A stretch of DNA of 64,000 bases from Clostridia bacterium (lineage in GTDB: Bacteria > Bacillota > Clostridia > TANB77 > CAG-508): contig CAAEVK010000012.1 of assembly GCA_900759475.1 (NCBI GenBank), positions 75,938 through 139,937 on the forward strand, read 5' to 3'. Made by a program: the position numbers and the translations under genes. Shown piece by piece: positions 5,113 through 64,000 of the stretch. The notes below the pieces were generated by a model, which searched no databases, was not told where the DNA came from, and saw only the letters and a list, made by a program, of their open reading frames with translations. Position 1 is the stretch's first letter. Every line of letters begins with the position of its first letter.

Positions 5113-5288
5113 TATTTTTTTGCATTAGTAATATTGAAACTTAATTTATATTGATGATATAATAAGAATTTAATGTGGGATTTTTATTATATTACTAGCA
5201 TCATTGCAGTTCCAATTTATATAGAATAAATGCAACAATTAACTTTTATTCATATTTTTTATTTTACCTCATATATTGACTCTATGAG

Positions 5289-9367: not shown

Positions 9368-10192
9368 TTATTGTGAAATTTTGTATTCTCGGTTTTGTAT
9401 TATTCCATTCTTTCCCATGAGATAATCTATTTGGCTTTTATTTTCTTTTATTTTAGTTAAAATATTATCATAATTATCTTTACCATATAAAATACTTTCG
9501 TATAAAATATTATGGTCAAATTCTTCTAACATATGATATTGTTCAAAAATTTCTATATATTCTTTTGGTAATCTAATCTTATAATTAATAATATTTACTC
9601 CTGAAAATTTTTTAGAATATATTTTAATTTCTTCGTTAATATTTAGTATTATAGCTTTATAAGGTAAATTATATTGATTAACTTCTTCTTCTGTAAAGTC
9701 TAAATTAATAATAATATTAGATTTTTTTAGTGCTTTTTTCTTATTATTCGTAATTGTTATCATTATTCCTAATTTACTATATAAATATTCCTCTATTGGT
9801 TTAAATTGATTAAAATGATTTGTTATTATATTCATGTGTTTTACTTTTTGTGACAATTGAATAATATTTTTTAAATTTGTTTCTGAATTGTCATTTGTCA
9901 TTATTGCAATTTCTTGTTCTTGTATAGGAACTTTTTGTTGATTTACAATATAATTAAGAGATGCCTCTAATAAATAATTCCATAACCATTTTCCATCTAG
10001 TATATTGGTATTTTTTTGATACAATTGATTTTTAAATTCTTCTATTTGATATAATTCTTTTGATAAAACTACGTTTGTTCTTGGAATTTGAATAAGATGT
10101 TTAGTTATTTTTTTTAGTTTTTTATAATTTTGTTTTTTCTCAAATGGTAGTATCAATAGTGTATCTTTTCCGTATTTTCTTTTCTGCAACAA
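9368..10192 (-). CDS. hypothetical protein (Lys/Asn-rich)
   Basis: 274-aa ORF with no recognisable motif. Confidence 0.4.
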   Translation of the reverse strand: MLQKRKYGKDTLLILPFEKKQNYKKLKKITKHLIQIPRTNVVLSKELYQIEEFKNQLYQKNTNILDGKWLWNYLLEASLNYIVNQQKVPIQEQEIAIMTNDNSETNLKNIIQLSQKVKHMNIITNHFNQFKPIEEYLYSKLGIMITITNNKKKALKKSNIIINLDFTEEEVNQYNLPYKAIILNINEEIKIYSKKFSGVNIINYKIRLPKEYIEIFEQYHMLEEFDHNILYESILYGKDNYDNILTKIKENKSQIDYLMGKNGIIQNREYKISQ

Positions 10193-42329: not shown

Positions 42330-44660
42330 ATGAAAGTGGTGAAAATTTTGAAATACATTGATAAATTCTTAAAATTTTTAAAAACCGATAGAAATACATT
42401 TTTAACATATATTTTAACTCTTGCAACTATTTATATTGTTGTCGATAGAATAATAGAAATTATTTTTATGATGTTTACAGGAGTTAGTGCTTCTTATTGG
42501 GGACCTATTACCTATACCTTTGCATTAGCTTGTCCTGTTTTTGCTTATTTATTTTCTGGCAGTTCGAAATTCACCAAAGGTTCTAATATGAAAATTTCAT
42601 TTTTTTACCTTTATTGCATTAGTTTATATATTATTGCTCTTTCTATGTTTGTACAATGGATTAATGTTTTTGCTTGGCTTGCTTTTACTTTTGTACCTAA
42701 TTTTGCAAAAATTATTGCAGATTTTTCAGATTTAATTAAGCCGGCATTTTCTGCACTTGCTATTTACTTACCACTTGCTACCTTTTATCCACTATTTAAA
42801 TGGTTGTTTTTAGGTGTAAATGATACTAAAAAATGGAAAGATTCTATTAAGGATTATGGTGGTATAGATTTATCTGCTAAACCAGAAGGCGTAGGTCCAT
42901 ATTCTTGCGAAATTACTATTTGTAAAAATTCCGATACTGCTAAAGCTGTAAAGACTCCTGAACCAAAAAGGTTTGAATCTACATTTGTTTGCGGAAGTTC
43001 TGGAACTGGAAAAACTTCTATGGTATTCGAACCTATGATTGCACAAGATATTGAAAAGAAACGATTTTTTAGAGAAGTCTCTAAAGAAATGGGATTCACT
43101 GCTCTAAAAACTGGTTTAGCAGTTTTAAATACACCATATGATAATGAATATTTAAATAAAAATTTTAATTTAAATATGATTAAACCAAATTCTTATAATG
43201 TAAAACTTTATAATGCTTATATGAAAAAATTAATTGTTTATTCTTCTGAAAACAATTATACTTATAAAGATTTAGGACTTACCTATTTAGCACCAGACTA
43301 TGAATCTGTTAATCGCATGATAGATGTTGCCAATAATTATAACATACCATTTCATATTGTAGATCCTTCTAACAGTAATTCAATTGGTATAAATCCTTTT
43401 ATTCATGAAAATCCTGTAAAAACTGCTATCGCTATTTCTTCTGTTTTAAAAGGAATGTATTTTACTACTCATGTAGAAGTAGAAGAGGCATTTAGAGAAA
43501 ATGTTGTTACTCAAGCAATTGAAAATTTGTGTATTTTGCTAAAAGAAGTATATCCTAAACTACATAATGGAAATATTCCAACACTAGAAGATTTATTAAA
43601 CCTTTTAAATGATTTCGATTTAGTTGAAGAGATGTGTTATGTTCTAGAAAGTGACGAGGAATTAAAAAATCAATATCTTATTCAATTATCTTATTTTAAA
43701 AAGAATTTTTACAAAAATTCTCCTGGTAGAGCAGATACAGAAAAATTTGTATATTCTGCCATTACACAGTTAGATAATTTATTAAGATACCCAGGAATTA
43801 GAACTATTTTATGTAATAGAACTAATAATATTAATTTTGATAAAGCATTACAGAATGGAGAAATTACTTTAGTGTGTACACGACGTGGTGACTTAGGAGA
43901 AACTGCTCACAAAGCATTTGGATTATTCTTTTTATTGCTAATGCAATATTCGGTATTAACAAGACCAGGAAATGAAAAGACACGAATTCCTCATTTCTTA
44001 TATGTTGACGAATTTCCAGACTTTTTGTGTAAAGCAACATCACCTATTTTTACATTATATAGAAAGTATCGCGTTGGAACTATTATTTCGGCACAAACTT
44101 TGTCTCAATTTGGTGCACAAGGAAAAGATAATTATAGGCAAGTAATTTTAAGTAATTGTAGTACAAAAATACTTTTTGGTGGTGGCACACCTGAAGAAAA
44201 TGAATGGTGGTCAAAAGAATTTGGTCAGCACAGAGAATGGATGTGGAATGATTCTTATGATACTAAAAAAGGTGAGTACGATCCTAAATTTAATGGCATT
44301 AAATGGGGATGGAAAACTACATTTGAAGCTAATAAATTAGCTACTCTAAAATTTAAAAAGTGTGCTTATAAAACACGTGATTCTAAAGGAAAGGCTATTA
44401 TTGGTCCAGGTTCAGTTGATTTTCTTTCTTCTAAGTATAAAGAAAAACAAGAAGATGCAACTTATAATTTTTATCGATTTGCTAGCGGTATTCATGATGA
44501 AAATAAAAAATCCACATTAAAGAAAAATAAATCTGTTATAACTAGCTCAGATGATATAAACGAAGAATTTGACCCAATTCAAACAGATACTACAGATGCA
44601 AATTACTTTCTAAATAGTGATGATGGTATTACTATTGATTTAAATAAAAAACAACCATAA
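42330..44660 (+). CDS. TraG/VirD4/TcpA-like type IV coupling protein (membrane-anchored P-loop ATPase)
   Basis: 776 aa. About four N-terminal TM helices, Walker A GSSGTGKTS, Walker B LYVDEFPDF, and a TIISAQTLSQF motif. Confidence 0.55.
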   Translation: MKVVKILKYIDKFLKFLKTDRNTFLTYILTLATIYIVVDRIIEIIFMMFTGVSASYWGPITYTFALACPVFAYLFSGSSKFTKGSNMKISFFYLYCISLYIIALSMFVQWINVFAWLAFTFVPNFAKIIADFSDLIKPAFSALAIYLPLATFYPLFKWLFLGVNDTKKWKDSIKDYGGIDLSAKPEGVGPYSCEITICKNSDTAKAVKTPEPKRFESTFVCGSSGTGKTSMVFEPMIAQDIEKKRFFREVSKEMGFTALKTGLAVLNTPYDNEYLNKNFNLNMIKPNSYNVKLYNAYMKKLIVYSSENNYTYKDLGLTYLAPDYESVNRMIDVANNYNIPFHIVDPSNSNSIGINPFIHENPVKTAIAISSVLKGMYFTTHVEVEEAFRENVVTQAIENLCILLKEVYPKLHNGNIPTLEDLLNLLNDFDLVEEMCYVLESDEELKNQYLIQLSYFKKNFYKNSPGRADTEKFVYSAITQLDNLLRYPGIRTILCNRTNNINFDKALQNGEITLVCTRRGDLGETAHKAFGLFFLLLMQYSVLTRPGNEKTRIPHFLYVDEFPDFLCKATSPIFTLYRKYRVGTIISAQTLSQFGAQGKDNYRQVILSNCSTKILFGGGTPEENEWWSKEFGQHREWMWNDSYDTKKGEYDPKFNGIKWGWKTTFEANKLATLKFKKCAYKTRDSKGKAIIGPGSVDFLSSKYKEKQEDATYNFYRFASGIHDENKKSTLKKNKSVITSSDDINEEFDPIQTDTTDANYFLNSDDGITIDLNKKQP

Positions 44661-44697
44661 AAGAAAAATAGAGTATTGCACTCTATTTTTCTTTTAT
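44661..44697 (+). terminator. terminator after the coupling protein gene
   Basis: aaaatagagt attgc actctatttt. Confidence 0.6.
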
Positions 44698-44847
44698 GGT
44701 TATATTATACCTATTCAGTATAATTTTTTTCTTTTATGGTTTTAACTTCATAAGAAAAGTTACTTCGTCACATGTACACGATGCTTCGCATCGGCACATC
44801 CCAAGGAAACTTAACCTTGTTGTATAAAAATATAATTATTACTCCTT

Positions 44848-45783
44848 TTATCCCAATAATTTAATTGTTGGTTCTTCCATTTTATATTTGTTAGTTGCTT
44901 CATCTAATTTAAATTCCACCAATGTGTTGCTTAAAGTTTCTTGATTTTGCCTTAAATCTGTAGAAAAATATAGCTTAATTCTATCTAACTCTAACTTATT
45001 TTTTATAATTATTTTAAAAGTTTCTGCCATGTGCTTATCATCTTCACAAATAATAATTAGTTGTGGCACTCTTTCATATCCACAATCCATAGTTACAAAA
45101 TTATCGTAAAAATCTTTATATAACTTCATTCTGTCAGAAAATTTCTTTTCCCATTCTTCCTCTCTTCTTACTACTTCAAATAGGAAGTCTATGTTTTTGT
45201 CATTTCTTGTTAATTGAATTCCACCATGTGCCTTAAAAACTTTTCCTACTCTTTTAGCAGATAGTGTAGGCTTTACGGTATAACTATTATATGCTTGTAC
45301 TTTTCTTAAATATGCTAAAATTGTTTGATTTCCAGCTAACCTCTTTTTTACCATTCCCACTGGTTTAGTATTGTCTGTTGGTTGCCAATTACATTCTATT
45401 CCTCTGGAGTTTAGTAAGTATTTTCCCATTTTTTCTAGACAATATACTCTGTAAGTGCAGTCTCCTTCTTCAGAACGAAAAAAATACCTTGTTAAAATCT
45501 TGCATTTTATTAATTGTTCTAACCTAGTATTTAATTTATCTTGTGATGTAATCTCTACTTTTCTTTCTTGCAATATTTGATATAATTGACGTGAAGTAAT
45601 AAATTCAAATTCATTTACGATTTCTATTATTTTAAAGTGTACTTCTGTAATATGTCCAATATTAATTTTATTAATAATTTGATTAATTGACACATAACCA
45701 TCTTTTCCATCAAATACCTTTATTTCATTTGCTCTAACAGCAAATGGTGATGTAGTCGCTTTTATTTCAAAGTCTTCTACCAT
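44848..45783 (-). CDS. replication-relaxation family protein (putative MOB relaxase / Rep)
   Basis: 311 aa. N-terminal wHTH-like segment (EIVNEFEFITSRQLYQIL). Its partner is the coupling protein. Confidence 0.4.
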   Translation of the reverse strand: MVEDFEIKATTSPFAVRANEIKVFDGKDGYVSINQIINKINIGHITEVHFKIIEIVNEFEFITSRQLYQILQERKVEITSQDKLNTRLEQLIKCKILTRYFFRSEEGDCTYRVYCLEKMGKYLLNSRGIECNWQPTDNTKPVGMVKKRLAGNQTILAYLRKVQAYNSYTVKPTLSAKRVGKVFKAHGGIQLTRNDKNIDFLFEVVRREEEWEKKFSDRMKLYKDFYDNFVTMDCGYERVPQLIIICEDDKHMAETFKIIIKNKLELDRIKLYFSTDLRQNQETLSNTLVEFKLDEATNKYKMEEPTIKLLG

Positions 45784-51680: not shown

Positions 51681-52178
51681 CTACGCTGCATATAAAAGCT
51701 CTGTAACACATAAACCTATAATTACATCCAGCTCTAATGAAAATTTTTTCTTATCAATGCGAATTTCTTGTGGCTCTATTTTTTTATTTTGCAATGTTGT
51801 AATATTTCTTTGCAAACATAGAATCAATTCTTCATCCTCTATGCTAGACATAGTTACTGTTGCTTTTCCATTAAAACCATACGTAATTGATATTGCATTT
51901 AAATCTTGCAATATCTTTAAATCAACTTTATCTGAATTAACAATAATGTATTTTGCATTTGCAATTATTTTTTTAAATTCTTCTTTATTTTGTAACTTTT
52001 TTACATTGTGATTAATAATAATTGTTTCAAATTTTACATTTTTAATATTAGTAATACTTTTTTCATTAATTGCAATTGCCGGATAAGGAGTAATTTTTTT
52101 TAATTCCTGTTCTACTATATTTTCTTGTTTTTTGTCTACACAAAAACCAATAAAACTCATTTCTTTTTCTCCCATCAT
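51681..52178 (-). CDS. hypothetical protein
   Basis: 165-aa ORF with no motif recognised. Confidence 0.35.
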   Translation of the reverse strand: MMGEKEMSFIGFCVDKKQENIVEQELKKITPYPAIAINEKSITNIKNVKFETIIINHNVKKLQNKEEFKKIIANAKYIIVNSDKVDLKILQDLNAISITYGFNGKATVTMSSIEDEELILCLQRNITTLQNKKIEPQEIRIDKKKFSLELDVIIGLCVTELLYAA

Positions 52179-52227
52179 TTTTTACTTAATGGTCATTTTA
52201 TTGTTATTTTTTCCACTTTTACTAAAT

Positions 52228-52845
52228 TTATTCTTGATGTTGTACTCCATTTACATCAATTTGATAATTTTCTTGATAAATTAAGTCTGACACTTTCACA
52301 ATATCAAAACCTTTTTCTTTAATACTCTTTATAATTCCTTTTAAACTAGATGCTGTATTTTTTGTTCCGTTATGCATTAAAATAATACTTCCATTTTGTA
52401 ATTTTGGTTCAATTCTACTAATCATTTCTTTTTCTGTTAATCCTGTATAGTCTAAACTATCTATTGACCATTGAATTGTAATATGATTTTCTGCTTTAGC
52501 AGCTCTTAAAACAGTATTACTATATTCACCATAAGGTCCCCTATAAAGTGTTGTCTTTTTTCCTGTTATTGCTTCTATTTTTTGACTACATTTTTTTATT
52601 TCCTCCCTATTCTTTTCTTCATTTAGATTGCTAACATGAGGATGTGTATTAGAATGATTTGCTATTTCATGTCCAGCTTCATAAATCTTTTTTACATATA
52701 CCCCATACTTATCCACCCAATCTCCCACCATAAAAAAAGTTATTTTTATTTTACTCTCCTCTAAAGTTTTTAAAATTTCATCAATATCGTCTGCATTCCA
52801 GTCGCAATTTCTTTTGTGATAGATTTTCGTTAAAATTAAAAGCAG
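52228..52845 (-). CDS. polysaccharide deacetylase (CE4/NodB, PdaA-like), 3' portion of a gene interrupted by the intervening element
   Basis: NodB motifs (HEIANHSNTHP, LYRGPYG, ILMHNG). The frame stays open upstream to a TAA at about 52846 with no start codon. The N-terminal continuation is at 63529-63735. Confidence 0.7.
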   Translation of the reverse strand: MLLILTKIYHKRNCDWNADDIDEILKTLEESKIKITFFMVGDWVDKYGVYVKKIYEAGHEIANHSNTHPHVSNLNEEKNREEIKKCSQKIEAITGKKTTLYRGPYGEYSNTVLRAAKAENHITIQWSIDSLDYTGLTEKEMISRIEPKLQNGSIILMHNGTKNTASSLKGIIKSIKEKGFDIVKVSDLIYQENYQIDVNGVQHQE

Positions 52846-52863
52846 ATTTTATCTACTCTAAAT

Positions 52864-54414
52864 TTACACTTTAAATTTGTAATTAATTTTAATATTTTCT
52901 TTATCAGTTATTTCAATACTATCTATTAAATTTAAAATTATATTTCTATCTATGTTTTCAAAACTTACAATTTCTTTTATGTATTTTATTAATTCTCTTT
53001 CTTTTGTATTTTCGTAGTCTTGTAATTTTAGATTTAAATTTTCCGTTTTTTGTATTAATTCTTCTTGCTCTTTTTTGTAACTTTCTGAATATGTAACAAA
53101 TTCATTTGTATCTATTATTCCATTTACTCTATCTTCATAAGCTGTTTTTAGTATTTTGTTAATTTCATTAATCCTTTTTTTATTGTCTGTAATTTTTTTT
53201 TCTATTTTCTTTTTCTCTATATTTATACTGCTTTTATCAATAGAGTCTATTAGTTTTTCCTTATCTATTTTCTCGGTCAAATTTTTTCTTAAATCTTCTA
53301 CTACAAATTTATTCAAAACACTTTCTCTTATTGCTCTTCTTGTACAATAATCTTTTCCATATCTATTATACATACTACAAATTGCAACCATATCATCTTT
53401 TAATCCACTTTGTTTCTGAAATGTATATTTATTATGACATATTGGACAATATAATAGCCCTGCCAATAGATGTTCTGTATTTTCTTTTCTATGAATATTA
53501 TGTGCTTTTCTTTTTAAAATATCTTGTGCTAATTCAAATGTCTTTTTATCAATTATTGCTTCATGAGCATTTTCTTTTATTAGATATTCTGTTTTTGGAA
53601 GTAGCCTATATTTTTTTACTTTATAACTTACCATCTCACCTTTATGTTGTATTAAATCTCCTGTATATACTTTATTTGTTAATATAGATTTTATTGTATT
53701 GTGTCCCCATAAATTAGCAATTGCCTTGCAATGATATCTTGAATTTCTTTGTTTATATACAGATGGGCAGTCTATTTTTCTTTCATTTAATCTATGTGCT
53801 ATATATGCTAAGCCCTTTCCATTTATATATTCATTAAATATATATTTAACTACCTCTGCTGCTTCCTCATCTACAATTAGTTTAGTAATATCATTTGGAT
53901 GCTTTTTATATCCATATGGTGCAAATGCTCCAATGAATTCTCCCTTTTCTGCTTTTGTTCTTTTTACAGTTCTTACTTTTTTAGAAATATCTTTTGCATA
54001 CATATCATTTACAACTGCTAAAAATGGTCCAATATCGTTATTATTTGTTTTTGAAAATGTATCTACTCCATCATTTACGGCAATATACCTAATATTTCTT
54101 GCAGGAAAATAGTTTTCTGTGTAATATCCAACTTGTATATAATCTCTTCCTAAACGAGATAAATCTTTTGTTATTACTAAATCTATTTTTCCGTCATTTA
54201 CATCGTTTATTAATCTTATAAAATCTGGTCTATTAAAATTTGTACCTGTATATCCATCATCTGTATATATATCTACTAAAAACCAGTTAGAATGTTTTGC
54301 AATATATTCGCTCAAGAAAATTTTTTGATTTTTTATACTTTCTGATTCAGTTTTTGAATCATCATCTCTTGATAATCTTAAGTACATTCCGTACTTTGTA
54401 AGTTTTACTTTCAA
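52864..54414 (-). CDS. large serine recombinase (resolvase/invertase N-domain, recombinase domain, zinc ribbon)
   Basis: 516 aa. YLRLSRDDD catalytic-Ser region, a recombinase domain, a CPICHNKY zinc ribbon, and a C-terminal coiled coil. Confidence 0.85.
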   Translation of the reverse strand: MKVKLTKYGMYLRLSRDDDSKTESESIKNQKIFLSEYIAKHSNWFLVDIYTDDGYTGTNFNRPDFIRLINDVNDGKIDLVITKDLSRLGRDYIQVGYYTENYFPARNIRYIAVNDGVDTFSKTNNNDIGPFLAVVNDMYAKDISKKVRTVKRTKAEKGEFIGAFAPYGYKKHPNDITKLIVDEEAAEVVKYIFNEYINGKGLAYIAHRLNERKIDCPSVYKQRNSRYHCKAIANLWGHNTIKSILTNKVYTGDLIQHKGEMVSYKVKKYRLLPKTEYLIKENAHEAIIDKKTFELAQDILKRKAHNIHRKENTEHLLAGLLYCPICHNKYTFQKQSGLKDDMVAICSMYNRYGKDYCTRRAIRESVLNKFVVEDLRKNLTEKIDKEKLIDSIDKSSINIEKKKIEKKITDNKKRINEINKILKTAYEDRVNGIIDTNEFVTYSESYKKEQEELIQKTENLNLKLQDYENTKERELIKYIKEIVSFENIDRNIILNLIDSIEITDKENIKINYKFKV

Positions 54415-55049
54415 TTATACTTGTTTCCATATTGCCAAATTTTCTCCTTCCTCATAGTACATCATTATTACTATGTCTATATAAGAAACAAGTTATTTAG
54501 GATTTTGTGTTTTGAATTCTAACTCTTCTTCCTCTTTATTGCAAGTCTTTTCTTGCAAATATATTGGAAGTAATATTTCCATTAGTTCTTGCAATGTTTT
54601 TCCTTCGTTTGAATAACTTCTTACTACATTCATGTCCACCTCTTTCTTTTTAAATGTATATGTCAAAACATATAATTTATTACTTCAAAAAACAGATATA
54701 AATCATCCTATATCTGTTACAACCAATCAAAAAAGAGTCTAGCACTTTTTGCTAAACTCCATATTTTATATTGGTTAATTTTTGTATCACACTTTTCTTA
54801 CATAAATCTCTAATACACTATTTTTAATACTGTATTAGTAGACTTTTTGATAACACTTTTATTGCATAACTACACTATACAATATTTGATAAACATTGTA
54901 CTTTGCAACTTTTTGCTAACAAATTTTTTATATAAGAAATCTGTAGAGAATTTTTTATTTTCTCTACTTTATGTACCCTATTATATATAGATTTTTATAT
55001 GTTGTCAATGTTTTCATTAGATTTTTAATAAAAAATCTGTAGTATTTCA

Positions 55050-55712
55050 TTAAATAATATCTAATAATTCTTTCATTGATCTTATTTTATAATCTGGCTC
55101 TATTAAAACTTCTTCTTTTTTCTTCCATTTGTTATTTATATTTTGCTCATACCATATAGTCTTTACACCTAATACTTTTACTCCTAATAAATCTTCTAGT
55201 AGCTCATCACTTACAAATGCAATTTTATTGTATTCTTCTTTTGGAATTTCTTCAAATGCTTTCATATATACTTTTAAATTTGGTTTTCTTTCTTTTACTT
55301 CTTCTGAAATAACTACTTTTTTAAAATATTTTCTTATATCTTCACGTTTTAAAATATATTCAACATTCCTAATAGAATTATTACTTATAATTCCTAGATA
55401 ATAACCTTTTTCGTATAATTTAGCAATAGTCTCTCTTGTCTCGCCATCTAAAATATGAGATTCTAATAATAGTATATCAATTTTTTCTAAATCTTCTTCT
55501 GTTATATTTAAAATTGATGATAAATCTTTATATATTTCTTTTTCTGTAATCTTTCCTAGAGAGTTTAAAATTTGATAGTTTTTCCATTTTCCAAATATAT
55601 CATCCCATTTTAAATTATATTTTTCTAATATTTTATTTATTTTATCATCAACATTTTCAAATTTACTGATTAATGTATATCCCCAATCAAAAAATATATA
55701 TTTATATTTCAT
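55050..55712 (-). CDS. HAD-superfamily hydrolase
   Basis: 220 aa. Motif I FFDWGYTL, motif II GIISNNS, Lys motif ERKPNLKVY, and the last motif FVSDE. Confidence 0.6.
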   Translation of the reverse strand: MKYKYIFFDWGYTLISKFENVDDKINKILEKYNLKWDDIFGKWKNYQILNSLGKITEKEIYKDLSSILNITEEDLEKIDILLLESHILDGETRETIAKLYEKGYYLGIISNNSIRNVEYILKREDIRKYFKKVVISEEVKERKPNLKVYMKAFEEIPKEEYNKIAFVSDELLEDLLGVKVLGVKTIWYEQNINNKWKKKEEVLIEPDYKIRSMKELLDII

Positions 55713-55713
55713 C

Positions 55714-56094
55714 TTATCTTTCTTCTCCTTTATCTTTTATATTATTTATTTCTTCAATAATCTCATGTTCGAAAAATCTTTCTTGAAATTCTACTAATGC
55801 CTCAATTTGTTGTTTAGTATATATCTTTTCTTCAGGAGCAATCACTAATTTATCGTCATCATCATCCAATCTATGTATTGCAGCTATACATTTTCCTTCA
55901 TATTCTTCTACTGGTTCAAATATTCCTACTATATATGCATCTAATTCTTCACCATCTCCACTAATTGTATTCGGAACATATCCATAATTAATTGGATATA
56001 TAAAATTCCATTTAGGATGTTTTGAGCCCATTGGTCTATCCATAACAACTTTGACTTTCTTACCTAAAAAATCTTTATAACTTACTTTTTTCAT
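55714..56094 (-). CDS. inorganic pyrophosphatase-like protein (truncated family I PPase fold)
   Basis: 126 aa. MDRPMG...YPINYGYVPNT...DGEELDAYIV resembles the PPase core. Confidence 0.45.
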   Translation of the reverse strand: MKKVSYKDFLGKKVKVVMDRPMGSKHPKWNFIYPINYGYVPNTISGDGEELDAYIVGIFEPVEEYEGKCIAAIHRLDDDDDKLVIAPEEKIYTKQQIEALVEFQERFFEHEIIEEINNIKDKGEER

Positions 56095-56108
56095 TTATTA
56101 TATCCTTT

Positions 56109-57056
56109 CTAATATAATTTATTGTATATCATATCCGATAATTTTTTAATATTACCTCTTGCAGTATATATTCCGGTCTTTTTAACTAATTTCTCTACAA
56201 AATTCATTCTCTTCATTGCTAGTTCTTGATTGTCAAAATTAGGGAATGGATAATTTGTGCTTAATACAATATTTCTATCAGCCCTTATATATTCTGATAT
56301 AGCCTTCATTGTAGCTAATGTCGCAACATCTTCCATTTGTTTTGTTAAATTTGTTTCTTCATCTTTAACTGGATATGTAGCAGTATATAGTATATTTGAA
56401 AGCTTCGCTGTCTTAGTTACTTTTATACCTAACTCTTCAAATTCTGGATTTATATATATTTTGTTTTCCCATGGTCTATTCATTTTCTCTTTGTCAATTT
56501 TACTTATCAAACTTGGAAAATATTCATGTATTACTCCAACTCTAATATGAGTTTGAAGAGTCCCACAGTAAACATATGGTATTCCATCTTCAAGACCTAT
56601 AACTGCTCTATCATTGCATACAAAGTTATAGCCTTTTTCCATACAAAGATACATTGCCAATGTTGTTTTACCCGAACCAGCTTCTCCTGAAATTAATGTT
56701 GCTTTACCATCTTTTTCAACAATTGCACAATGAATAAAATACTTATCTTCTTTGTTTAATTCTTTTGCAAACATTGATAAGGCTAAATATATCAAATCTG
56801 GTAAATACAATTCTCTTTCTGGTACACATATCAATGCTTGGTTCAATTCTGGATTTATTTGTACTAAATTAGGTCTTTTATCTAGGTAAATCAAATAATT
56901 CCCACTCAAATCAGCATTTTCATCAGGTATAATTTCTATTCCAGGTATAGTTTCCGGAACTTGTTCTTCATCTGTCAAAAAATAATTGTAAATCTTTTCA
57001 GAATTTGTTGCAAATATAATTTCTGCGGAATGGCATTTCATCCTTAATTTTTTCAT
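56109..57056 (-). CDS. HprK-related P-loop kinase-like protein
   Basis: 315 aa. Walker A LISGEAGSGKTTLA followed by NDR, like the HPr kinase C-domain. Confidence 0.5.
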   Translation of the reverse strand: MKKLRMKCHSAEIIFATNSEKIYNYFLTDEEQVPETIPGIEIIPDENADLSGNYLIYLDKRPNLVQINPELNQALICVPERELYLPDLIYLALSMFAKELNKEDKYFIHCAIVEKDGKATLISGEAGSGKTTLAMYLCMEKGYNFVCNDRAVIGLEDGIPYVYCGTLQTHIRVGVIHEYFPSLISKIDKEKMNRPWENKIYINPEFEELGIKVTKTAKLSNILYTATYPVKDEETNLTKQMEDVATLATMKAISEYIRADRNIVLSTNYPFPNFDNQELAMKRMNFVEKLVKKTGIYTARGNIKKLSDMIYNKLY

Positions 57057-57074
57057 TTAATACCTCCTTACTAA

Positions 57075-58319
57075 TTAGAAAACAATATCATTTTCTATCA
57101 ATTTTACTATTCTATTCTTCTCTTGAATTATATCACATTCGTCTATAATTTTAAACTTGTAATTTTCTATTATTATTTTCCCATCTTTCATTACTATCTC
57201 AGGCTTATTTCCTGATGTGTAGATTAGGTTTTCTATAATAGATTTTTTATAAGTAAAATTTAAATTATTTCTATTAAAGAATAATATATCTGCCTTATTT
57301 CCCTCAATAATACTTCCCGAATTTATTTTCATATATTTTGCTGGATTTATAGTAATCATATCTAGTAATGTATTGCTATCCAAATTAGTTAATAAAGCTG
57401 TTGTTCTCAAACTATCAAGTAATGATAACGAATCATTTGTTGCAGGTCCATCTGTTGCAACTATTACATTAATTTGATTATCCAATAATTTTTTTATATC
57501 ACATGGCTTATTTTTTAACTTTAAATTACTACTATGGCATGCTACAACTGATACTTTATTATTTTTTATTAACATTATATCATCATTACTTAAATAATTA
57601 CAATGCACTAGTAAAGTATTTTCATTTAATAAATCGTATTTTTTTAGTAATTCGATTGGTGTCATTTTATATTTTTTCTCAATGTATTTTACCTCTTCAG
57701 CAGTTTCGCAAATATGTAGACTTAATTTTATTCTCTTATTGTTTTTTAAAAAATTTGAAATCTCAATTAAAGTCCCTTTTTCTATCCATTTTACTGAATG
57801 TAAACCGATAAAGTATTCTACATTTTTCTTTTTCTCTAAAGAATTAAATTTCTGTTCAAAATTCAATTTATACTCCATCAACTTTTTAGAATTCATCATA
57901 GGGTACCCTAAAAAAGCATTAACTGGGAAACTTGCTACATTCGGCCATCCTCTAACTCCAAACACTGTCAATGTACCATTTTTGATTGATTCTAAAATAA
58001 CATTATTTATAGAACTACTCCTAATCTCATCTATAATACTCTTAAACTTTGTATGAAATTTCTCTCCTAACAAAATGTATTCTTCTGTTGATAGATTTTT
58101 TTTGTATCCTCTTAAAAAATATTCGCCAAAATGAATATGAGCATTTAAAAAAGCTGGTAAAATTATGTATTCTTTTGCTTCAATTACTTTCTTACTCGAA
58201 ATAGCCTTATTTCCCACATATACAATTTTATTATCTTTTATTCCTATATTTGCCTGCTTTATTTCTCTTTTAAAATTTTGAGTTACAATTAATCCGTCCC
58301 TTATTAGCAAATCTAACAT
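57075..58319 (-). CDS. amidohydrolase-superfamily enzyme (MtaD/SAH-deaminase/chlorohydrolase-like)
   Basis: 414 aa. N-terminal HxH metal motif (NAHIHFGEY) and TIM-barrel amidohydrolase pattern. Confidence 0.6.
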   Translation of the reverse strand: MLDLLIRDGLIVTQNFKREIKQANIGIKDNKIVYVGNKAISSKKVIEAKEYIILPAFLNAHIHFGEYFLRGYKKNLSTEEYILLGEKFHTKFKSIIDEIRSSSINNVILESIKNGTLTVFGVRGWPNVASFPVNAFLGYPMMNSKKLMEYKLNFEQKFNSLEKKKNVEYFIGLHSVKWIEKGTLIEISNFLKNNKRIKLSLHICETAEEVKYIEKKYKMTPIELLKKYDLLNENTLLVHCNYLSNDDIMLIKNNKVSVVACHSSNLKLKNKPCDIKKLLDNQINVIVATDGPATNDSLSLLDSLRTTALLTNLDSNTLLDMITINPAKYMKINSGSIIEGNKADILFFNRNNLNFTYKKSIIENLIYTSGNKPEIVMKDGKIIIENYKFKIIDECDIIQEKNRIVKLIENDIVF

Positions 58320-58328
58320 TATTAACTC

Positions 58329-59462
58329 CTACCTTTTTGGTTTTCCAATCCATGTACATAGATAATTTTCATGCACCAATTGTTTTTCTCCCTTTTTATA
58401 TTCAATGCTATCATTAAAATTAATTTCTTTAAAGCAAAATGGATCTCTAGCATATAAATCTTTTTCTCCAGTTTCACATTTTTTATATGTATAAGCCATA
58501 GCAAAACAGCCACCTCTGCAAATTTCTGCTTTATCACAATCTTTGCAACCTTCTATTTTTTCATAATTTTCTTTTCTAATTCTAAAACTCTTGAATTGCT
58601 CTGAATTAACTATATCAAGTATATCATCTTTTAAGAGATTTCCTACTCTATAGTCATGCATATATACACATGGAGATACAGGTATTTTTCCATCTGGTGT
58701 AATTGAATTGATCCTCATAGAATATATGCCACATGAACACCCATGCACTTTGTTATTATCCACTAATCCAGATAAAGTTGGTTCACTCAATTCTACTGTA
58801 TCACATATTTTAAATAAATACTTATAGTTTTCAAGTACTTGATTTTTAGTAGGTACAAGTTCATAATGTTTTTCTTGAATTGGTTTTAATAAATTAAATC
58901 GAATATTTGAATTATATTGCTTTGCTAATTCTAATAAAGCATCTATACGATCCTTGGTAAAATTCCAATTCATCGCACACATTATAATCCCTGATTCTAT
59001 TCCATATTCTTTGCATATTTCCAGAGCTTCTATTGCATATTTGTACACATCTCCTCCTCTATTTTCATTATGTTCTTTTTCATATGGTGAATCTAAACTA
59101 ATATCTACATCATTTAATAACTTTAGACATTCTGGGTAAACATTTTTCAATGCAATTAAACTTATTCCGGATGTTGTAATTCCTACTTTTATGTTCTTCT
59201 TTGTTAATTCTTTCAATATATATGGCAATAGACTATCCTGAACTTTTAAACCATTAGTAAAAATAGGTTCATTACCCCCTAAATTAATTGTCTCCACTCC
59301 TATTCTTTGAACCTGCTCAATTACTTTATCAACAATTTCTTTAGTAAGATTTTTTCCTTTTTCTCTAACACTCATTGAATAACAGTGTTTACATTTGCAA
59401 GGACAATCATTTCCTAATGTCCAACCTATGTTTTTAATTTGTCTACATTCTTTTTCTTCCAT
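58329..59462 (-). CDS. radical SAM enzyme with a C-terminal SPASM/twitch-type cysteine cluster
   Basis: 377 aa. CPCKCKHC fits Cx3Cx2C. GGNEP SAM motif. C-terminal CKDCDKAEICRGGC (Cx2Cx5Cx3C) plus additional Cys. Confidence 0.75.
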   Translation of the reverse strand: MEEKECRQIKNIGWTLGNDCPCKCKHCYSMSVREKGKNLTKEIVDKVIEQVQRIGVETINLGGNEPIFTNGLKVQDSLLPYILKELTKKNIKVGITTSGISLIALKNVYPECLKLLNDVDISLDSPYEKEHNENRGGDVYKYAIEALEICKEYGIESGIIMCAMNWNFTKDRIDALLELAKQYNSNIRFNLLKPIQEKHYELVPTKNQVLENYKYLFKICDTVELSEPTLSGLVDNNKVHGCSCGIYSMRINSITPDGKIPVSPCVYMHDYRVGNLLKDDILDIVNSEQFKSFRIRKENYEKIEGCKDCDKAEICRGGCFAMAYTYKKCETGEKDLYARDPFCFKEINFNDSIEYKKGEKQLVHENYLCTWIGKPKR

Positions 59463-59463
59463 T

Positions 59464-60177
59464 TTAATCCCCTTTCAAAATTTCTTTTTTTACTTTCCTT
59501 ATTTGTTCTTTAATCTTTTCATAGTATGAAAAATTTATATCTAAATTTTTCTTTAGAGCATCTATATATAATTCTTCATACAAACTTAAGTATATTTTAT
59601 ATTGCTTGTATGAATAATATTTATCTGTAATATTCCATAATTTAAATAAATTGTCTATTTCTTTTTCTGTTTTTATATTATTTTTTTGTCGGTCTACCAT
59701 TGATTTTCTATTTGATAATACATAAAGTAAAAATTCACAATCATTTTTTTGTTTTATTTGATTTATAAAATTTAAAATTATTTTTGTCTCATCTTCTATT
59801 ACTCCAACATCATTTAGATGATAGTTATATTCATTTGTTTTTCCAAAATGATTCTCATATATCTTTTTATCGACAATAGTTAATATATTCTTTTTATAAT
59901 TTATAGTAAAAATCTGTCCATATATAATATTGGTATTCTCAATTTGCCCACTTTCATTAATAGCATTAATAAATTTTAAATAATCAAATGTACTTTCTGT
60001 GTACTCCTCTATTTTTTCATTTTTCATAATTTTCTTCATTTCGTCATTTTTCTTCACATTTAATTCTATGTACTCTGTTAACTTTTTGCTATTTATAAGT
60101 TTTTTAATGAACTTTTTATCATCTATTATCTCTATTCCATCATATTTAAAAATGCCAATTTCATTATCGCTCTTCAT
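59464..60177 (-). CDS. hypothetical protein
   Basis: 237 aa, in the operon, no motif recognised. Confidence 0.35.
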   Translation of the reverse strand: MKSDNEIGIFKYDGIEIIDDKKFIKKLINSKKLTEYIELNVKKNDEMKKIMKNEKIEEYTESTFDYLKFINAINESGQIENTNIIYGQIFTINYKKNILTIVDKKIYENHFGKTNEYNYHLNDVGVIEDETKIILNFINQIKQKNDCEFLLYVLSNRKSMVDRQKNNIKTEKEIDNLFKLWNITDKYYSYKQYKIYLSLYEELYIDALKKNLDINFSYYEKIKEQIRKVKKEILKGD

Positions 60178-61069
60178 AATTTAATCCTCCTTGTGTAATA
60201 ATCTTTGCTTTATCCAACCAAGGAGTTATAATTTCTTCAGGTATATTTAAATTTGACCTACCTATACCTATCTCGGAATCAGGAGTACCATGTGAATCAC
60301 TTCCTCCTGAAATATATAAATTATTCTTTTGTGCAAATTCTAATGCAAATCGATGTTGTTCATTTGAATAATATGGATAATATCCTTCTATGCCATCTAA
60401 CATACTTTCACTTATTAATGTTTCTAGTACATCCATTGAATTTTCATTATACTTAAATATATGTGGCATAAAAACTTTCCCCCCACATTGTTTTATCAAC
60501 TGTACAACTTGTTTATATGATGGAATAAGTCCTGAAAAATCAACAAAAAAATCGCTATTAGGATTTGATGTATATGTTAATAGAAAGGTTCTTGCATTAT
60601 CCCACGCTTCTGCTGAGATAAACCTCTTATTTTCTAAATGTCTTTTTATTTCGTCAAATACTGCTCTTTTTCCTCTTTCTTTTTCCGCATCATATATTAT
60701 GTTATGAACATTTATAACTAAACCTTTTTCAATGCACTTTTCTATAATTAAATTAGTCTCATATATATTATAATCTTTTTTCGGAAGATATAATTTTGAT
60801 ATTTTGTCTTGCACTAAATCTGTATCAATATTATAGCCAATTAATTCTATTGGTACATTATTTACTATTGTAGAAAATTCACAACCTGGTATTATTTTTC
60901 CACTATAAAATCTTTCCTCTGATAATTCTTTTAATTCTGCATATGCTTCACATGTATTATTATCTGTTATTGAAATTATAGAAACATTTCTTTTCTCTGC
61001 TATCTGTAATATTTTTATTAAATTATTTTTTCCGCCAGAATAGTTTGAATGAATATGTAGATCTATCAT
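60164..61069 (-). CDS. PHP-domain metal-dependent phosphoesterase
   Basis: 301 aa. MIDLHIHSNYSGG and GGSDSHG PHP motifs. Confidence 0.65.
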   Translation of the reverse strand: MIDLHIHSNYSGGKNNLIKILQIAEKRNVSIISITDNNTCEAYAELKELSEERFYSGKIIPGCEFSTIVNNVPIELIGYNIDTDLVQDKISKLYLPKKDYNIYETNLIIEKCIEKGLVINVHNIIYDAEKERGKRAVFDEIKRHLENKRFISAEAWDNARTFLLTYTSNPNSDFFVDFSGLIPSYKQVVQLIKQCGGKVFMPHIFKYNENSMDVLETLISESMLDGIEGYYPYYSNEQHRFALEFAQKNNLYISGGSDSHGTPDSEIGIGRSNLNIPEEIITPWLDKAKIITQGGLNYEER

Positions 61070-61162
61070 AACAATCTCCTTTTGCTATTTACATAAATAT
61101 CTTACCATATTTTTCCACAAAATTCAACACTTATCCTTAATAATTTACATTTTTTGTATATC

Positions 61163-61735
61163 TTATATTGATTTTATTAACAAGTCAAAAATCAGTCTTT
61201 TTCCATCATCGTCCATTCGAGCATAAGAATCTGAAATCTTTTTATTCACAGTTTGATTAGCTTCATCTTGATTAGTAAACTTTAATAAATACTCGAAAAA
61301 ATATTTTTTATGAAGAATATAAGAAATTATATCTGAATTTATTATTAACTTGCTCATCTGATCAAAATCATCATTTGCATTTTTTCTATGATTCATTATA
61401 GCATGTTTTATTAATTGTATTTTTGTCTCTTTATAGTTATTTTCTCTTAAAAAATCTTCTGCATACTCTGCTCCTATAATCTCATGATTATCTATTTCTC
61501 CTTTAAGCATAAATTTTCCGACATCATGAAATAATCCTGTTAATATAGCGTCTATTTTATTGATTCTCTTTATATATGACATTTCAAAGCAAATCTTTGC
61601 ACAAGGTATAAAATGTTCTTCATAAAAAGGAATTGAACTATTTTCCTTTGCTAATTTACTTATTATTCTAGTTGACTTAACTAAAATTGGATTTGTCTCT
61701 AGTAATTTTTCAAATTCTATATTTCTACTATACAT
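61163..61735 (-). CDS. HD-domain phosphohydrolase
   Basis: 190 aa. H...HD motif (LFHDVGK). Confidence 0.6.
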   Translation of the reverse strand: MYSRNIEFEKLLETNPILVKSTRIISKLAKENSSIPFYEEHFIPCAKICFEMSYIKRINKIDAILTGLFHDVGKFMLKGEIDNHEIIGAEYAEDFLRENNYKETKIQLIKHAIMNHRKNANDDFDQMSKLIINSDIISYILHKKYFFEYLLKFTNQDEANQTVNKKISDSYARMDDDGKRLIFDLLIKSI

Positions 61736-61842
61736 CTTTATCTCCTTCTGATTATGCTTATTTATAATTTTATTTTTTAATTATAATATATATTTCTTAT
61801 AATTACAATTATAAATTACCTTATTAATTATTTCATTATCCT

Positions 61843-62313
61843 TTATTCATTCCTAAACTCTTCTCTATAAACATCTCCTATAATATAAAAATCATATAAA
61901 TCCATTTTAGTCATTCCTTCAGGGTCTTTACTTACATAATAATTCGCTTTTTTTCTTGCATTTTTTAACATTTTATTAAATCTCTCATAATGTTCATCAC
62001 CTAATAAATTTTTCATAACTTCACTATTTAAGTATGTACCAATAGCCATTGTTCTTAAAAATTTTATACTTATTTTTCTTTGTGTCTTTAAAAACTTGTC
62101 CATTTTTTCTTCAATTGGTTTTAAAATTTCTTTAATTAATTCTTCCATTTTATCTTGATATAAATCTAAATTTAATTCCTTATCTATACCACTTCTAATA
62201 ATATCTGCTTCATATCTTCCTTGACTTTTTGCAATATTTTTTATCATATCTTTTTTATATTTTGGTACTCTAATTACCATAGTTACTAATTTTTCTTCTT
62301 CTTTTTCCTTCAA
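61843..62313 (-). CDS. hypothetical protein (possible ribbon-helix-helix N-terminus)
   Basis: 156 aa. TTG start with a GGAGG SD. Confidence 0.35.
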   Translation of the reverse strand: MKEKEEEKLVTMVIRVPKYKKDMIKNIAKSQGRYEADIIRSGIDKELNLDLYQDKMEELIKEILKPIEEKMDKFLKTQRKISIKFLRTMAIGTYLNSEVMKNLLGDEHYERFNKMLKNARKKANYYVSKDPEGMTKMDLYDFYIIGDVYREEFRNE

Positions 62314-62525
62314 CTTTCTTCCTCCTTTTCTTGTTGCTTTTTCTTTTCAAAATTGTTTTTAACAATTTTGCAGGATCAGGGAGATATCTCATCTCCCGCT
62401 TACTGCCTAAAAGCGTGGCTTTTAGCAGGGTGCTTTATACATTTTCGTGATATCCTTTGTATATCTCACTTAATCCTAAAAAAAGCAAGTATAAATTCAA
62501 AAAAATCTATACTTGTTCCTTAATT

Positions 62526-62849
62526 TTATTTTAATTCTTCTTGCAATTTGATTCCATCTTTCAATCCTGATAGATAATATTTTTTATAAAAATAATAACT
62601 TTCATAATCTACTGTTTCAATATAATCTTCTAATACTTTTATAATATCATCTTTTAATTCATTAAGATTGTATGGAATTTTTTCTATTTTTTCGTTTAGA
62701 AAATTATGTTTTTTACTTCTATTGGCTTTATCTTGATTCATAAATCTTTTATCTTCTTCATTTATAAAAGCCAATTCTTCTTCTCTTGCCTCGAATATAG
62801 TTTCTAACATATTAATATTTTTATTTACCATTTTTATCTCACCTCCCAT
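62526..62849 (-). CDS. hypothetical protein
   Basis: 107-aa ORF. Confidence 0.3.
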   Translation of the reverse strand: MGGEIKMVNKNINMLETIFEAREEELAFINEEDKRFMNQDKANRSKKHNFLNEKIEKIPYNLNELKDDIIKVLEDYIETVDYESYYFYKKYYLSGLKDGIKLQEELK

Positions 62850-62900
62850 TGCTGTGTGATGTTAACTCTGTTTAAATAATTATTCAAGTCTTTTTTAGAA

Positions 62901-63311
62901 TTATTTAAAATTATTTGCATATAAACTCATCCAATCAAAATTGCTATAATCTCTATCACTTTTATATTTATATTTTTTATTTATATTATTTGATGGTAAA
63001 AATTCCACAACTTTATTTGCACTTTTTTCATTACCTATATGTAAATTTTCTATATCTTTAGAATATACATCTACAACATATATTTTATATGCTTTACCTT
63101 TTCCTTGATTTTCTTGTTTTATTAATTTTGCCTCTTCTAATTCTTTAAATATTTTTATTACTGTTTTACTACTTGCTTTTAAGTTTTCTCCCATTTCTTT
63201 TCTTGTCATAAAAAGACATATATTTCCATATTCGTCAACTTTGTTGTTCATCCTTGATAAATTTAATCTATCTAGTATAAAAATATATGCTAATTGAGAC
63301 AAAGGGCACAA
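62901..63311 (-). CDS. RepA_N-family winged-helix DNA-binding protein (replication-initiator-A N-terminal domain type, common on Firmicute mobile elements)
   Basis: LAYIFILDRLNLS...DEYGNICLFMTRKEM...KTVIKIFKELEEAKLI pattern. The N-terminus may extend upstream. Confidence 0.5.
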   Translation of the reverse strand: MCPLSQLAYIFILDRLNLSRMNNKVDEYGNICLFMTRKEMGENLKASSKTVIKIFKELEEAKLIKQENQGKGKAYKIYVVDVYSKDIENLHIGNEKSANKVVEFLPSNNINKKYKYKSDRDYSNFDWMSLYANNFK

Positions 63312-63528
63312 AATCGATTTATATGCTCTGCATATAAAATTTTTCTTGGTACTTGACAGAACTTAAAATTAAGTTTTTGATTTATATTTATATACTTCAA
63401 TATTCACCTCATTTCATTTTGAAATTATGCACTCACAATTTCAATAAAAAGGACTACTAACCTAAATTAGTAATCCATTCCAAAATCCTGAAATAACTTG
63501 TTTTTAATTTCTATCATAAAAGTAATTG

Positions 63529-63735
63529 TTACCAAGCACAATTCATTGTTAAGGCTACTTTCTTTTCTGTAGTATCTACAGAATAAATTGGGACTTCTCT
63601 TTCTGTATAAGTTGTTTGAATACTTTCTTCCAAATTGCTTGTTGCACCAAGAACAAATAAAACACTCACTGTTAAAAATGCAATTATATAGGATATTATT
63701 TTATCTTTATTTAACACCAAAAACATACTATTCAC
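63529..63735 (-). CDS. polysaccharide deacetylase (PdaA-like), 5' portion: signal/TM segment up to ...KKVALTMNCAW
   Basis: An N-terminal TM helix and ...VALTxxxxW, the start of the NodB domain. The stop is created at the element junction. Confidence 0.6.
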   Translation of the reverse strand: MNSMFLVLNKDKIISYIIAFLTVSVLFVLGATSNLEESIQTTYTEREVPIYSVDTTEKKVALTMNCAW

Positions 63736-63777
63736 ATCCTTTTTATACCATATGCTCGTTTATATAGTATTAGAACT

Positions 63778-64000
63778 TTAGTCATATACTTCTTCTAATT
63801 TTACTACTAACCTCTGTAAAGCTCCTGTAGTACAAGTAATTAACGTTACTCTTCTTTCTCCTCCGTGTTTCTTGTTCTAGGCAAGTAGTATCATTTGGCA
63901 AAACCTTCTCTATGGCATATACTCGATAAATGCAATATTGTCCATAAAGATCTGTTAATTTTATTTGGTCTCCTATTTCCAGCTTTTTTAATTTCCAAAA
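63778..64000 (-). CDS. sortase (3' part; the gene continues beyond the window), frame broken by one extra C (63865)
   Basis: GDQIKLTDLYGQYCIYRVYAIEKVLPNDTTCLEQ is sortase beta-barrel sequence. ACA-C-GGA breaks the frame. Without the C it reads ...ETGGERRVTLITCTTGALQRLVVKLEEVYD, including the TLITC catalytic Cys motif. Confidence 0.65.

Follow-up and report, generated by a model that had tools for sequence, protein, structure and literature searches.

The window analysed here is a stretch of 64,000 nucleotides from a Clostridia bacterium (GenBank assembly GCA_900759475.1, contig CAAEVK010000012.1, positions 75,938 to 139,937 of the forward strand). Near its right end, on the minus strand, a gene for a polysaccharide deacetylase-like protein is interrupted by an element of 10,734 bp with a large serine recombinase gene at one end. 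An earlier note on this DNA, made from its letters and open reading frames (ORFs), had described a single deacetylase gene split by an element of about 10.7 kb, and this description is borne out both by empty sites in other strains and by the existence of the exact joined protein. The features on which the argument depends are the following, with positions in the window:

63533..63726, minus strand: 5′ part of the deacetylase gene, comprising codons 1-64 and TG, the first two bases of Trp65
63511..63556, minus strand: attL, with host B arm ...AACAATGAATTGTGCT, the dinucleotide TG at 63534-63533 and element P′ arm GTAACAATTACTTTTATGATAG at 63532-63511
52799..63532, minus strand: inserted element, 10,734 bp, with one copy of the TG crossover counted
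54655..54682, minus strand: sigma-E-type motif TAATAAA-13 nt-CATATACA, 21 nt 5′ of the ATG of the small ORF
54493..54633, minus strand: acidic ORF of 46 amino acids (aa) (MNVVRSYSNEGKTLQELMEILLPIYLQEKTCN...), candidate recombination directionality factor by position, size and conservation
52864..54414, minus strand: large serine recombinase of 516 aa, with Resolvase, Recombinase and Zn_ribbon_recom domains
52777..52822, minus strand: attR, with element P arm CTATCACAAAAGAAATTGCGAC at 52822-52801, TG at 52800-52799 and host B′ arm GAATGCAGACGAT...
52228..52798, minus strand: 3′ part of the deacetylase gene, comprising the last base of Trp65, Asn66-Glu254 and the stop codon

As integrated, the 5′ part (start ATG at 63726, with an alternative GTG at 63735) encodes 65 aa that end in ...KKVALTMNCAW and contain an N-terminal membrane segment and the beginning of NodB motif 1. 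The fragment ends in ...EKKVALTMNCAW, and its reading frame is terminated by a TAA supplied by the element (63531-63529). The 3′ part (NADDIDEIL...QHQE) carries NodB motifs 2-5. The frame around its junction is open from ...YHKRNCDW through NADDIDEILKTL... to the stop at 52228; the earlier note had extended this part to 52845, and bases 52801-52845 are now seen to be element P arm, not host gene. When the two parts are joined in silico, a single continuous ORF is obtained, as had been proposed, with a length of 254 aa instead of the approximately 260 aa first given, and the joined protein is matched in one stretch by the PdaB profile TIGR02764 (positions 1-191 of 191).

The gene is found uninterrupted in close relatives. 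Once positions 63532-52799 are removed, the window is 99.90-99.95% identical, without gaps over 4,039 bp, to five contigs of this species that lack the element (L099-L103), and in a relative that is about 92-93% identical (L001) both flanks are collinear and the insert is absent. Additionally, the uninterrupted deacetylase that the earlier note had suggested looking for in related genomes is present letter for letter in a public collection, where the exact 254-aa protein (P0241) is encoded on 46 contigs (75 blocks of the collection). As judged from these alignments, joining at TG recreates exactly the allele of the element-free strains of the same species. The inserted form, for its part, is also present in independent assemblies of human-gut samples (L097, L098, L105 and L107), and because the insertion recurs there, with identical junctions, an assembly artefact is rejected.

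Among NCBIfam profiles, the joined protein is best matched by PdaB (TIGR02764, 189.7 bits), followed by YlxY (TIGR02873, 158.6 bits) and PdaA (TIGR02884, 123.3 bits), and it lies under the curated cut-offs of all three (237.4, 391.5 and 298 bits, respectively); Pfam Polysacc_deac_1 (PF01522) also matches, with 114.9 bits. By these profiles, the target gene is PdaB/YlxY-like and not a certified member of either family, and the initial assignment as PdaA-like, which corresponds to the third-ranked profile, is abandoned. The distinction has consequences, as PdaA is expressed in the forespore of C. difficile in a sigma-G-dependent manner (PMC3789822) and, thus, would not fit a rearrangement confined to the mother cell. 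NodB motifs 2-5 can be read in the sequence as HSNTH, RGPYGEY, DSLDY and LMH, while motif 1 is TMNC instead of TFDD, here and in all close homologues, so that both Asp residues are absent. The nearest solved structures, all annotated as 'putative polysaccharide deacetylase' (6hpa, 6hm9 and 7bkf), have TIDVAW at motif 1, or TINVAW in the case of 7bkf. Intact homologues are abundant and 254-260 aa long, and TMNCAWNADDID, which runs across the junction, is invariant among them. An ssb paralogue with two OB folds is located two genes downstream of the deacetylase.

Large serine recombinases act on simple att sites and exchange strands at a 2-bp crossover. At this locus, the crossover was mapped by comparing attL and attR with empty sites for three complete elements, namely those of the window, of L008 and of L003, the last of which lies in a different gene. 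In all three, host and element sequences switch at the same dinucleotide TG (63534-63533 / 52800-52799 in the window), located inside codon 65, and attL and attR share merely TG(G) with attB. The earlier note had placed the exchange within a shared AATTG..TGG core of 12 bp; the empty-site alignment moves it to TG, and the 12-bp likeness of AATTGTGCTTGG to AATTGCGACTGG turns out to be an attB left arm that resembles the attP left arm, with no duplicated core. The reconstructed attP, CTATCACAAAAGAAATTGCGAC-TG-GTAACAATTACTTTTATGATAG, is an imperfect 22-bp inverted repeat centred on TG, whose arms are complementary at 18/22 positions in the window, 19/22 in L008 and 21/22 in L090, and the symmetry of attB is low (4-7 of 22). 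The attB junction reads ...AATTGTGCTTGGAATGCAGAC... and the attP junction ...AAATTGCGACTGGTAACAATTAC.... Over 72 distinct intact genes attB is highly conserved, because it encodes the family-invariant protein motif TMNCAWNADD. Compared in this way, the architecture of the att sites is the signature of a large serine recombinase.

A separate observation concerns attL. The ENA contig k127_50666 (L106; run ERR688558, 139.5 kb) begins with AATTGTGCTTGGTAACAATT (1-12), with only 10 nt between its start and the crossover of attL. Logan's assembly of this run reads across attL, and the end of L106 could mean either a mixed attB/attL population or an assembly quirk.

The 516-aa recombinase gene abuts the 3′ fragment, as had been noticed initially, and its identity is confirmed by three Pfam domains, all over their gathering scores (PF00239, 1.3e-18; PF07508, 1.3e-23; PF13408, 7.2e-11), together with a YLRLSRDD motif close to the N terminus. 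The closest solved structure to its catalytic domain is TnpX (2mhc, E = 7e-32). The parallel that had been drawn with the position of SpoIVCA in skin has to be dropped, since spoIVCA is described as adjoining the 5′ end of sigK (PMC10747680). The start codon of the recombinase ORF is TTG, without an obvious ribosome-binding site (window approximately 54365-54435, minus strand). The recombinase start is overlapped by a short ORF in another frame (ATGGAAACAAGTATAATTGAAAGT...), which has a good AAGGAG site in front of it; such an arrangement could provide translational coupling or control.

The insert could also be a defective prophage similar to skin or SPbeta. In favour of this reading, its recombinase matches phrog_95 ('integrase') and one further ORF matches DnaD-like/replication-initiator PHROGs. 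The remaining ORFs, however, match none or only PHROGs of unknown function, and among the ORFs of the element PHROGs revealed no capsid, tail, terminase, portal or lysis genes. Moreover, a comparison of the recombinase with 50,697 phage and 72,556 plasmid records gave no match of at least 40% identity, and the smallest complete relatives of the element measure just 4.3-4.4 kb. A defective prophage or, for the reasons given above, a chimera of assembly is consequently the least probable of the explanations considered here. No relaxase was found among the genes of the element. Elsewhere in the window (42330-45783), about 7 kb from the deacetylase locus, there are a gene for a 776-aa TraG-D_C (coupling-protein-like) product and another for a 311-aa protein with a faint replication-relaxation match; both are common to element-free and element-bearing strains.

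Only two genes are common to all related elements: the recombinase and, directly upstream, an ORF of 45-51 aa. The core of the small protein, EGKTLQE(L/M)MEILLPIY, is invariant in the six sequences aligned, and the DNA changes in this region are, by reading of the alignment, mostly synonymous. These properties make the 46-aa protein a candidate recombination directionality factor. The sigma-E-type motif that precedes its gene (TAATAAA-13-CATATACA) is identical in the elements of four further species (L005, L006, L008 and L090), 20-24 nt from the ATG, and in L093, the most distant element, another sequence takes its place and nearly matches the same pattern, TCATAgT-13-CATATATT. In the Bacillus subtilis literature, the fuller consensus for sigma-E is kmATAww-14-CATACAhT. 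The sigma-E promoters of C. difficile have ATA at -35 and a CATA-type -10 (Saujet et al., PMC3789822). The pattern occurs 17 times on both strands of the window (128 kb) and, on reading the printed downstream sequence, has both a ribosome-binding site and a start codon after it in three of these cases. The two besides the small ORF are at 5250-5277 (plus strand) and 10329-10301 (minus strand); one precedes an aspartate-semialdehyde dehydrogenase-like gene and the other an unannotated ORF beside a 274-aa ORF (9368-10192). A possible SpoIIID box, TGTAACAGA, was considered upstream of the small ORF and rejected, since it belongs to a terminator-like hairpin, as one of the arms, and some elements lack it.

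Gut metagenomes commonly contain recombinases that are 65-98% identical to that of the window, and in at least seven other host species these occupy the same codon of the same gene. All of the contexts fetched but one contain the recombinase, the conserved P arm, TG, the 3′ fragment of the deacetylase, a gene of about 160 aa and the ssb paralogue. By contrast with this constant framework, the cargo varies between related elements, and includes genes for a TehB methyltransferase, NUDIX/ASCH proteins, RepA_N, ToxN and toxin-antitoxin systems. The window and L006, for instance, have recombinases that are 88.8% identical in hosts whose deacetylases are 60.5% identical, and one cargo product, which is ScmC-like and listed in 295 blocks of the collection, does not differ at all (100% identity) from one host species to another. 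Because the recombinases are far more alike than the host genes and this protein is identical across species, these comparisons indicate that the elements move horizontally.

In the exceptional context (L003/L004; L003:4757-12305), where the recombinase is 97% identical and the attP arms are the same, the element splits a gene for a GH25-3xLysM muramidase with a signal peptide. Joining at TG again yields one in-frame ORF, of 422 aa. Upstream of this gene there is a sigma-K-type match, AC-16-CATATAATA (AC-16-CATAnnnTA), which is a single sequence, checked post hoc. The element of the window is, in sum, a horizontally mobile island of non-phage type that inserts site-specifically and is driven by its large serine recombinase.

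Such an island might be nothing other than an ordinary integrative mobile element, for which 40-50 conserved bp of a gene are a convenient landing site; the gene would be knocked out, being dispensable or redundant, and excision would accompany only horizontal transfer. We would place this explanation somewhat below an even chance. It accounts for the strain-variable presence of the element between near-identical flanks, for a cargo protein that is 100% identical across species and recombinases more alike than the host genes, and for a cargo typical of mobile islands (toxin-antitoxin, ToxN, NUDIX, RepA_N-like). The conservation of attB is explained by the invariant motif that it encodes, and a near-identical recombinase uses a second gene (GH25-LysM). 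The absence of the catalytic Asp from motif 1 of the target family and a fossil element beside a regained intact gene (L110, see below) also agree with this explanation. On the other hand, an ordinary element leaves unexplained why the sole conserved companion of the recombinase has a conserved motif of sigma-E type, and not of sigma-A type, and why mother-cell-type motifs precede both known targets, when about 2% of the neighbouring genes have one. Nor does it account for the lack of damage to either gene fragment in all the carriers examined, a family-wide CGG frameshift (discussed below) aside.

The host is predicted to form spores, as the earlier note had stated: spoVAC (180.9 bits; cut-off 164) and spoVAD (511.9, cut-off 402, and 464.8, cut-off 411.8) exceed the NCBIfam cut-offs, and a spoVAE-like ORF comes next. 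A sigma-E-type pattern is located 19-33 nt from the ATG in 35 of 67 deacetylase orthologues, compared with a mean of 0.8 and a maximum of 4 in random windows of the same loci, while in the same 67 upstream regions a sigma-K pattern was found in none and a sigma-A-like one in two. With crude gene calls in those loci, 59 of 957 genes have a sigma-E-type motif, and most of these are the deacetylase; the motif is present in about half of the deacetylase genes and in about 2% of the other genes. From these counts, the target family looks mother-cell expressed. In C. difficile, three polysaccharide deacetylases and an ssb gene are sigma-E dependent (PMC3789822).

We consider that a skin-like arrangement, in which excision in the mother cell through a sigma-E-controlled 46-aa directionality factor rebuilds a gene of the sigma-E class, is the best single explanation of these observations, and we give it an even chance of being correct. 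In this model, the 516-aa recombinase at the attR end would have catalysed the integration and would also be able to reverse it, and the reversal would require the 46-aa protein. Since the gene for this protein would be driven by a sigma-E-type promoter, excision would be expected in the mother cell early in sporulation, and the forespore chromosome would retain the element. The rebuilt deacetylase gene, which in most relatives has a sigma-E-type promoter, would then be ready for work on the spore envelope or cortex. As it stands, the insertion leaves a 65-aa N-terminal stub and a 3′ fragment severed from its promoter and start codon. The module formed by the small ORF and the recombinase would let variable cargo sit in a sporulation gene at low cost to the host, and module and cargo would spread horizontally among gut Clostridia, the cargo of the window being a radical-SAM/nucleotide-hydrolase cassette. 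More generally, the small ORF and the recombinase may constitute a "mother-cell excision cassette" that is portable and, among uncultured Clostridia of the human gut, widespread, and that allows elements of 4-11 kb to reside in mother-cell genes (the deacetylase and, in the sister element, the GH25-LysM muramidase) without cost to spore formation. Such elements would be retained in the germline and, at the same time, carry variable cargo from species to species; we hold this extension a little more tentatively than the skin-like reading itself.

Several observations weigh against the excision model. The promoter calls were made by consensus matching in DNA of 25% G+C, with consensus sequences from the literature. 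The clade of the window itself (window, L001 and L010) fails the strict sigma-E pattern, having TCTAATA-13-CATATGGT upstream of the deacetylase, and in L003/L004 the -35 part of the small-ORF motif has been replaced through a duplication. The biochemical role of the target is uncertain, because motif 1 lacks the Asp residues that usually serve catalysis and metal binding. Additionally, the element is present in 5-8 contigs of the species, compared with at least 46 that have the intact gene, and the flanks are 99.95% identical; as a minority of contigs carry it between near-identical flanks, it is, on this distribution, a recent, strain-variable mobile insertion and not a fixed developmental feature.

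The fossil element in L110 (L110:1-11641, Logan SRR25035340_79) points in the same direction. Its cargo is 98.4% identical to that of the window, its small ORF and most of its recombinase are deleted, and its attL is degenerate (AATTGTGTATAGTAACAATTAC). Remnants of the old 5′ gene fragment persist at 1120-1201 and 3906-3955, and the fossil is directly followed, on its downstream side, by an intact deacetylase gene (256 aa) that has a promoter of its own, which suggests that the insertion can be costly.

Finally, excised forms have not appeared in assembled contigs. The attP junction pattern AATTGYKMCTGGTAACAATTAC gave one chance match in IMG/VR (L096) and none in the JGI metagenome contigs, a weak negative, as both collections probably cover the human gut poorly. 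L096 was discarded as an excised circle because it is an unrelated phage contig of high G+C whose flanks do not match. In every place displayed, the recombinases looked up were integrated, with no excised form. The lack of an excision product in these scans, as well as the existence of fossils such as L110, with degenerate attL and no recombinase, would also be expected if the element of the window were immobile and its deacetylase a decaying pseudogene. We regard such a dead insertion as very unlikely, as the window has an intact recombinase, an intact small ORF and two intact att sites, the protein encoded by the two fragments is exactly that of the uninterrupted allele, and copies of the element from several samples and species show no or almost no differences.

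Interrupted sporulation genes have been described for sigK, spsM, spoVFB, spoVR, gerE and yabG (PMC4191935, PMC5595907, PMC10747680); in the literature searched, and in the lists of known cases, we found no description of a deacetylase split by a recombinase element. The nearest parallel is skin(Cd) of C. difficile (CD1231 and CD1234, in sigK), where an element with a large serine recombinase also interrupts a mother-cell sporulation gene of a clostridial host, mother-cell expression being a prediction in the present case. CD1234 has 72 aa and a sigma-E promoter, with transcription starting 14 nt from the ATG (PMC5025042). The small ORF of the window would likewise encode a small acidic protein (46 aa), with a short leader after the sigma-E-type promoter, whose motif is 21 nt away from the ATG. 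The two differ in their targets, a sigma factor in skin(Cd) and a cell-wall deacetylase here. Furthermore, and unlike skin(Cd), the present element has no phage-like genes, belongs to a family of 4.3-10.7 kb with variable cargo that is found in a minority of strains of many species, and has its candidate factor directly upstream of the recombinase.

In Bacillus cereus ATCC 10987, gerE is interrupted by the gin element (GirC/GirX). GirX is a protein of 42 aa with no known motif, and the excision of gin has been demonstrated in vivo and in vitro (PMC5595907). Like the present element, it is not a prophage, combines a serine recombinase with a very small factor (a candidate in our case), has a central-dinucleotide crossover in an inverted repeat, and varies in gene content around a conserved recombination unit (PMC5595907). 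By contrast, gin has 31 genes and three recombinases, compared with one recombinase here and relatives as small as 4.3 kb, and it differs in host class, target gene and recombinase lineage. SPbeta (SprA/SprB, in spsM), vfbin (spoVFB), vrin (spoVR) and yin (yabG) have a large serine recombinase at one end too and split spore-envelope or maturation genes that are expressed in the mother cell, as is predicted here. They are prophages or prophage-like, and have other target genes. Yin is also strain-variable, with attB conserved in other strains (PMC4191935, PMC10747680).

Transposons Tn4451 and Tn4453 are represented in this comparison by TnpX, the nearest relative of solved structure for the catalytic domain of the recombinase. 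They are small non-phage elements with a circular intermediate, transposon-like in behaviour, with looser targets and resistance genes. The present clade differs in being specific to one codon of one gene and one alternative target. Judged against all these cases by sequence, what is new here is the target gene, the recombinase lineage and the unusually compact size of the elements.

Programmed DNA removal within sporulation genes has been shown for few targets, mostly in cultured Bacillus and a few clostridia. If the excision model is true, it would add a new target and a new recombinase lineage with a very small candidate factor, in an arrangement that is common and mobile in uncultured gut spore-formers; under the wider reading of a portable cassette, an early (sigma-E) cell-wall gene would join the rearranged sporulation genes, and programmed mother-cell rearrangement would become a common lifestyle of small non-phage mobile elements of the gut. 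If, instead, the element is an ordinary one, it would still illustrate cleanly how, in a minority of strains, a conserved sporulation gene is knocked out by a site-specific island. In practical terms, the sites of the recombinase are compact, with an attP of approximately 46 bp whose dyad is near-perfect and an attB conserved in hundreds of species and, with its putative 46-aa partner, the enzyme is a candidate for a reversible serine-integrase tool.

The remainder of the element consists of cargo and non-coding DNA:

62901..63311, minus strand: RepA_N/DnaD-like DNA-binding ORF, 136 aa from TTG or 102 aa from ATG 63209
61843..62849, minus strand: two ORFs, of 107 aa (62849-62526) and 156 aa (62313-61843)
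55050..61735, minus strand: cargo cassette of eight ORFs, from HD to HAD
61735-61163, minus strand: HD
61069-60164, minus strand: PHP
60177-59464, minus strand: 237-aa ORF
59462-58329, minus strand: radical SAM/SPASM
58319-57075, minus strand: amidohydrolase/nucleoside-deaminase-like
57056-56109, minus strand: ScmC/HprK-like P-loop
56094-55714, minus strand: pyrophosphatase-like
55712-55050, minus strand: HAD nucleotidase-like
54691..55008, minus strand: non-coding stretch of about 330 nt with a sigma-70 promoter, repeats and two hairpins

The RepA_N/DnaD-like ORF is common to the elements in L003 and L090 and not to all elements. The block of seven genes from PHP to HAD (window 55050-61069) has about 98% DNA identity in related elements of several species (L109-L115), and its composition suggests the synthesis or turnover of a modified nucleotide. 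PADLOC identified no defence system in the cargo, giving weak generic matches only (radical-SAM core-pVip, 1.4e-11; HD-Cas3-HD, 5.5e-06). The non-coding stretch starts with a perfect sigma-70 consensus promoter (12/12, TTGACA-17-TATAAT, at 55008-54980), followed by about 270 nt without an ORF, and contains three copies of TTA(G/T)CAAAAAGT, a 55-nt imperfect direct repeat and terminator-like hairpins at 54760-54734 and 54718-54691. It could correspond to a small RNA or to protein-binding sites; Rfam returned for positions 52000-64000 a single match with E = 0.96, which is not meaningful.

Besides its interruption by the element, the deacetylase family has a second peculiarity. In 21 of 101 related protein clusters, and in six DNA loci, the Ile codon of NodB motif 2 is separated from the Gly codon by one extra C, generating AUH-CGG-A. 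The following sites were located:

L116:3834-3848, extra C
L118:2930-2944, extra C
L005:2335-2349, extra C
L093:11778-11792, extra C
L112:13380-13394, extra C

The allele of the window is without the extra C (approximately 52670, GAA ATA GCA). No sense codon of these genomes is rarer than CGG (0.09-0.29 per 1000 codons), the codon GGA in the +1 frame is among the commonest, and reading in +1 at the extra C yields exactly the conserved protein. Between frameshift-bearing alleles, both halves are under purifying selection, with ratios of nonsynonymous to synonymous substitution (dN/dS) of 0.05-0.35 at a dS of 0.5-2.7. The frameshift alleles are dispersed over the tree, in loci with and without the element. 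An explanation as decay of split genes was considered for the three carrier lineages (L005, L093-95 and L112) and rejected, as the same C is present in the unsplit, element-free L116-L118 and in the 21 clusters mentioned above. The extra C looks like a programmed +1 frameshift, for which it is a candidate, and it may be more novel than the split gene. Lastly, four members of the family (P0348, P0376, P0384 and P0387) are truncated deacetylase ORFs that start with M(Y/F)KNIGDAVKKI... or MINIGDAVKKI.... This class of truncation fits neither the recombinase junction nor the CGG frameshift, and may reflect another interruption or frameshift site near codon 100.

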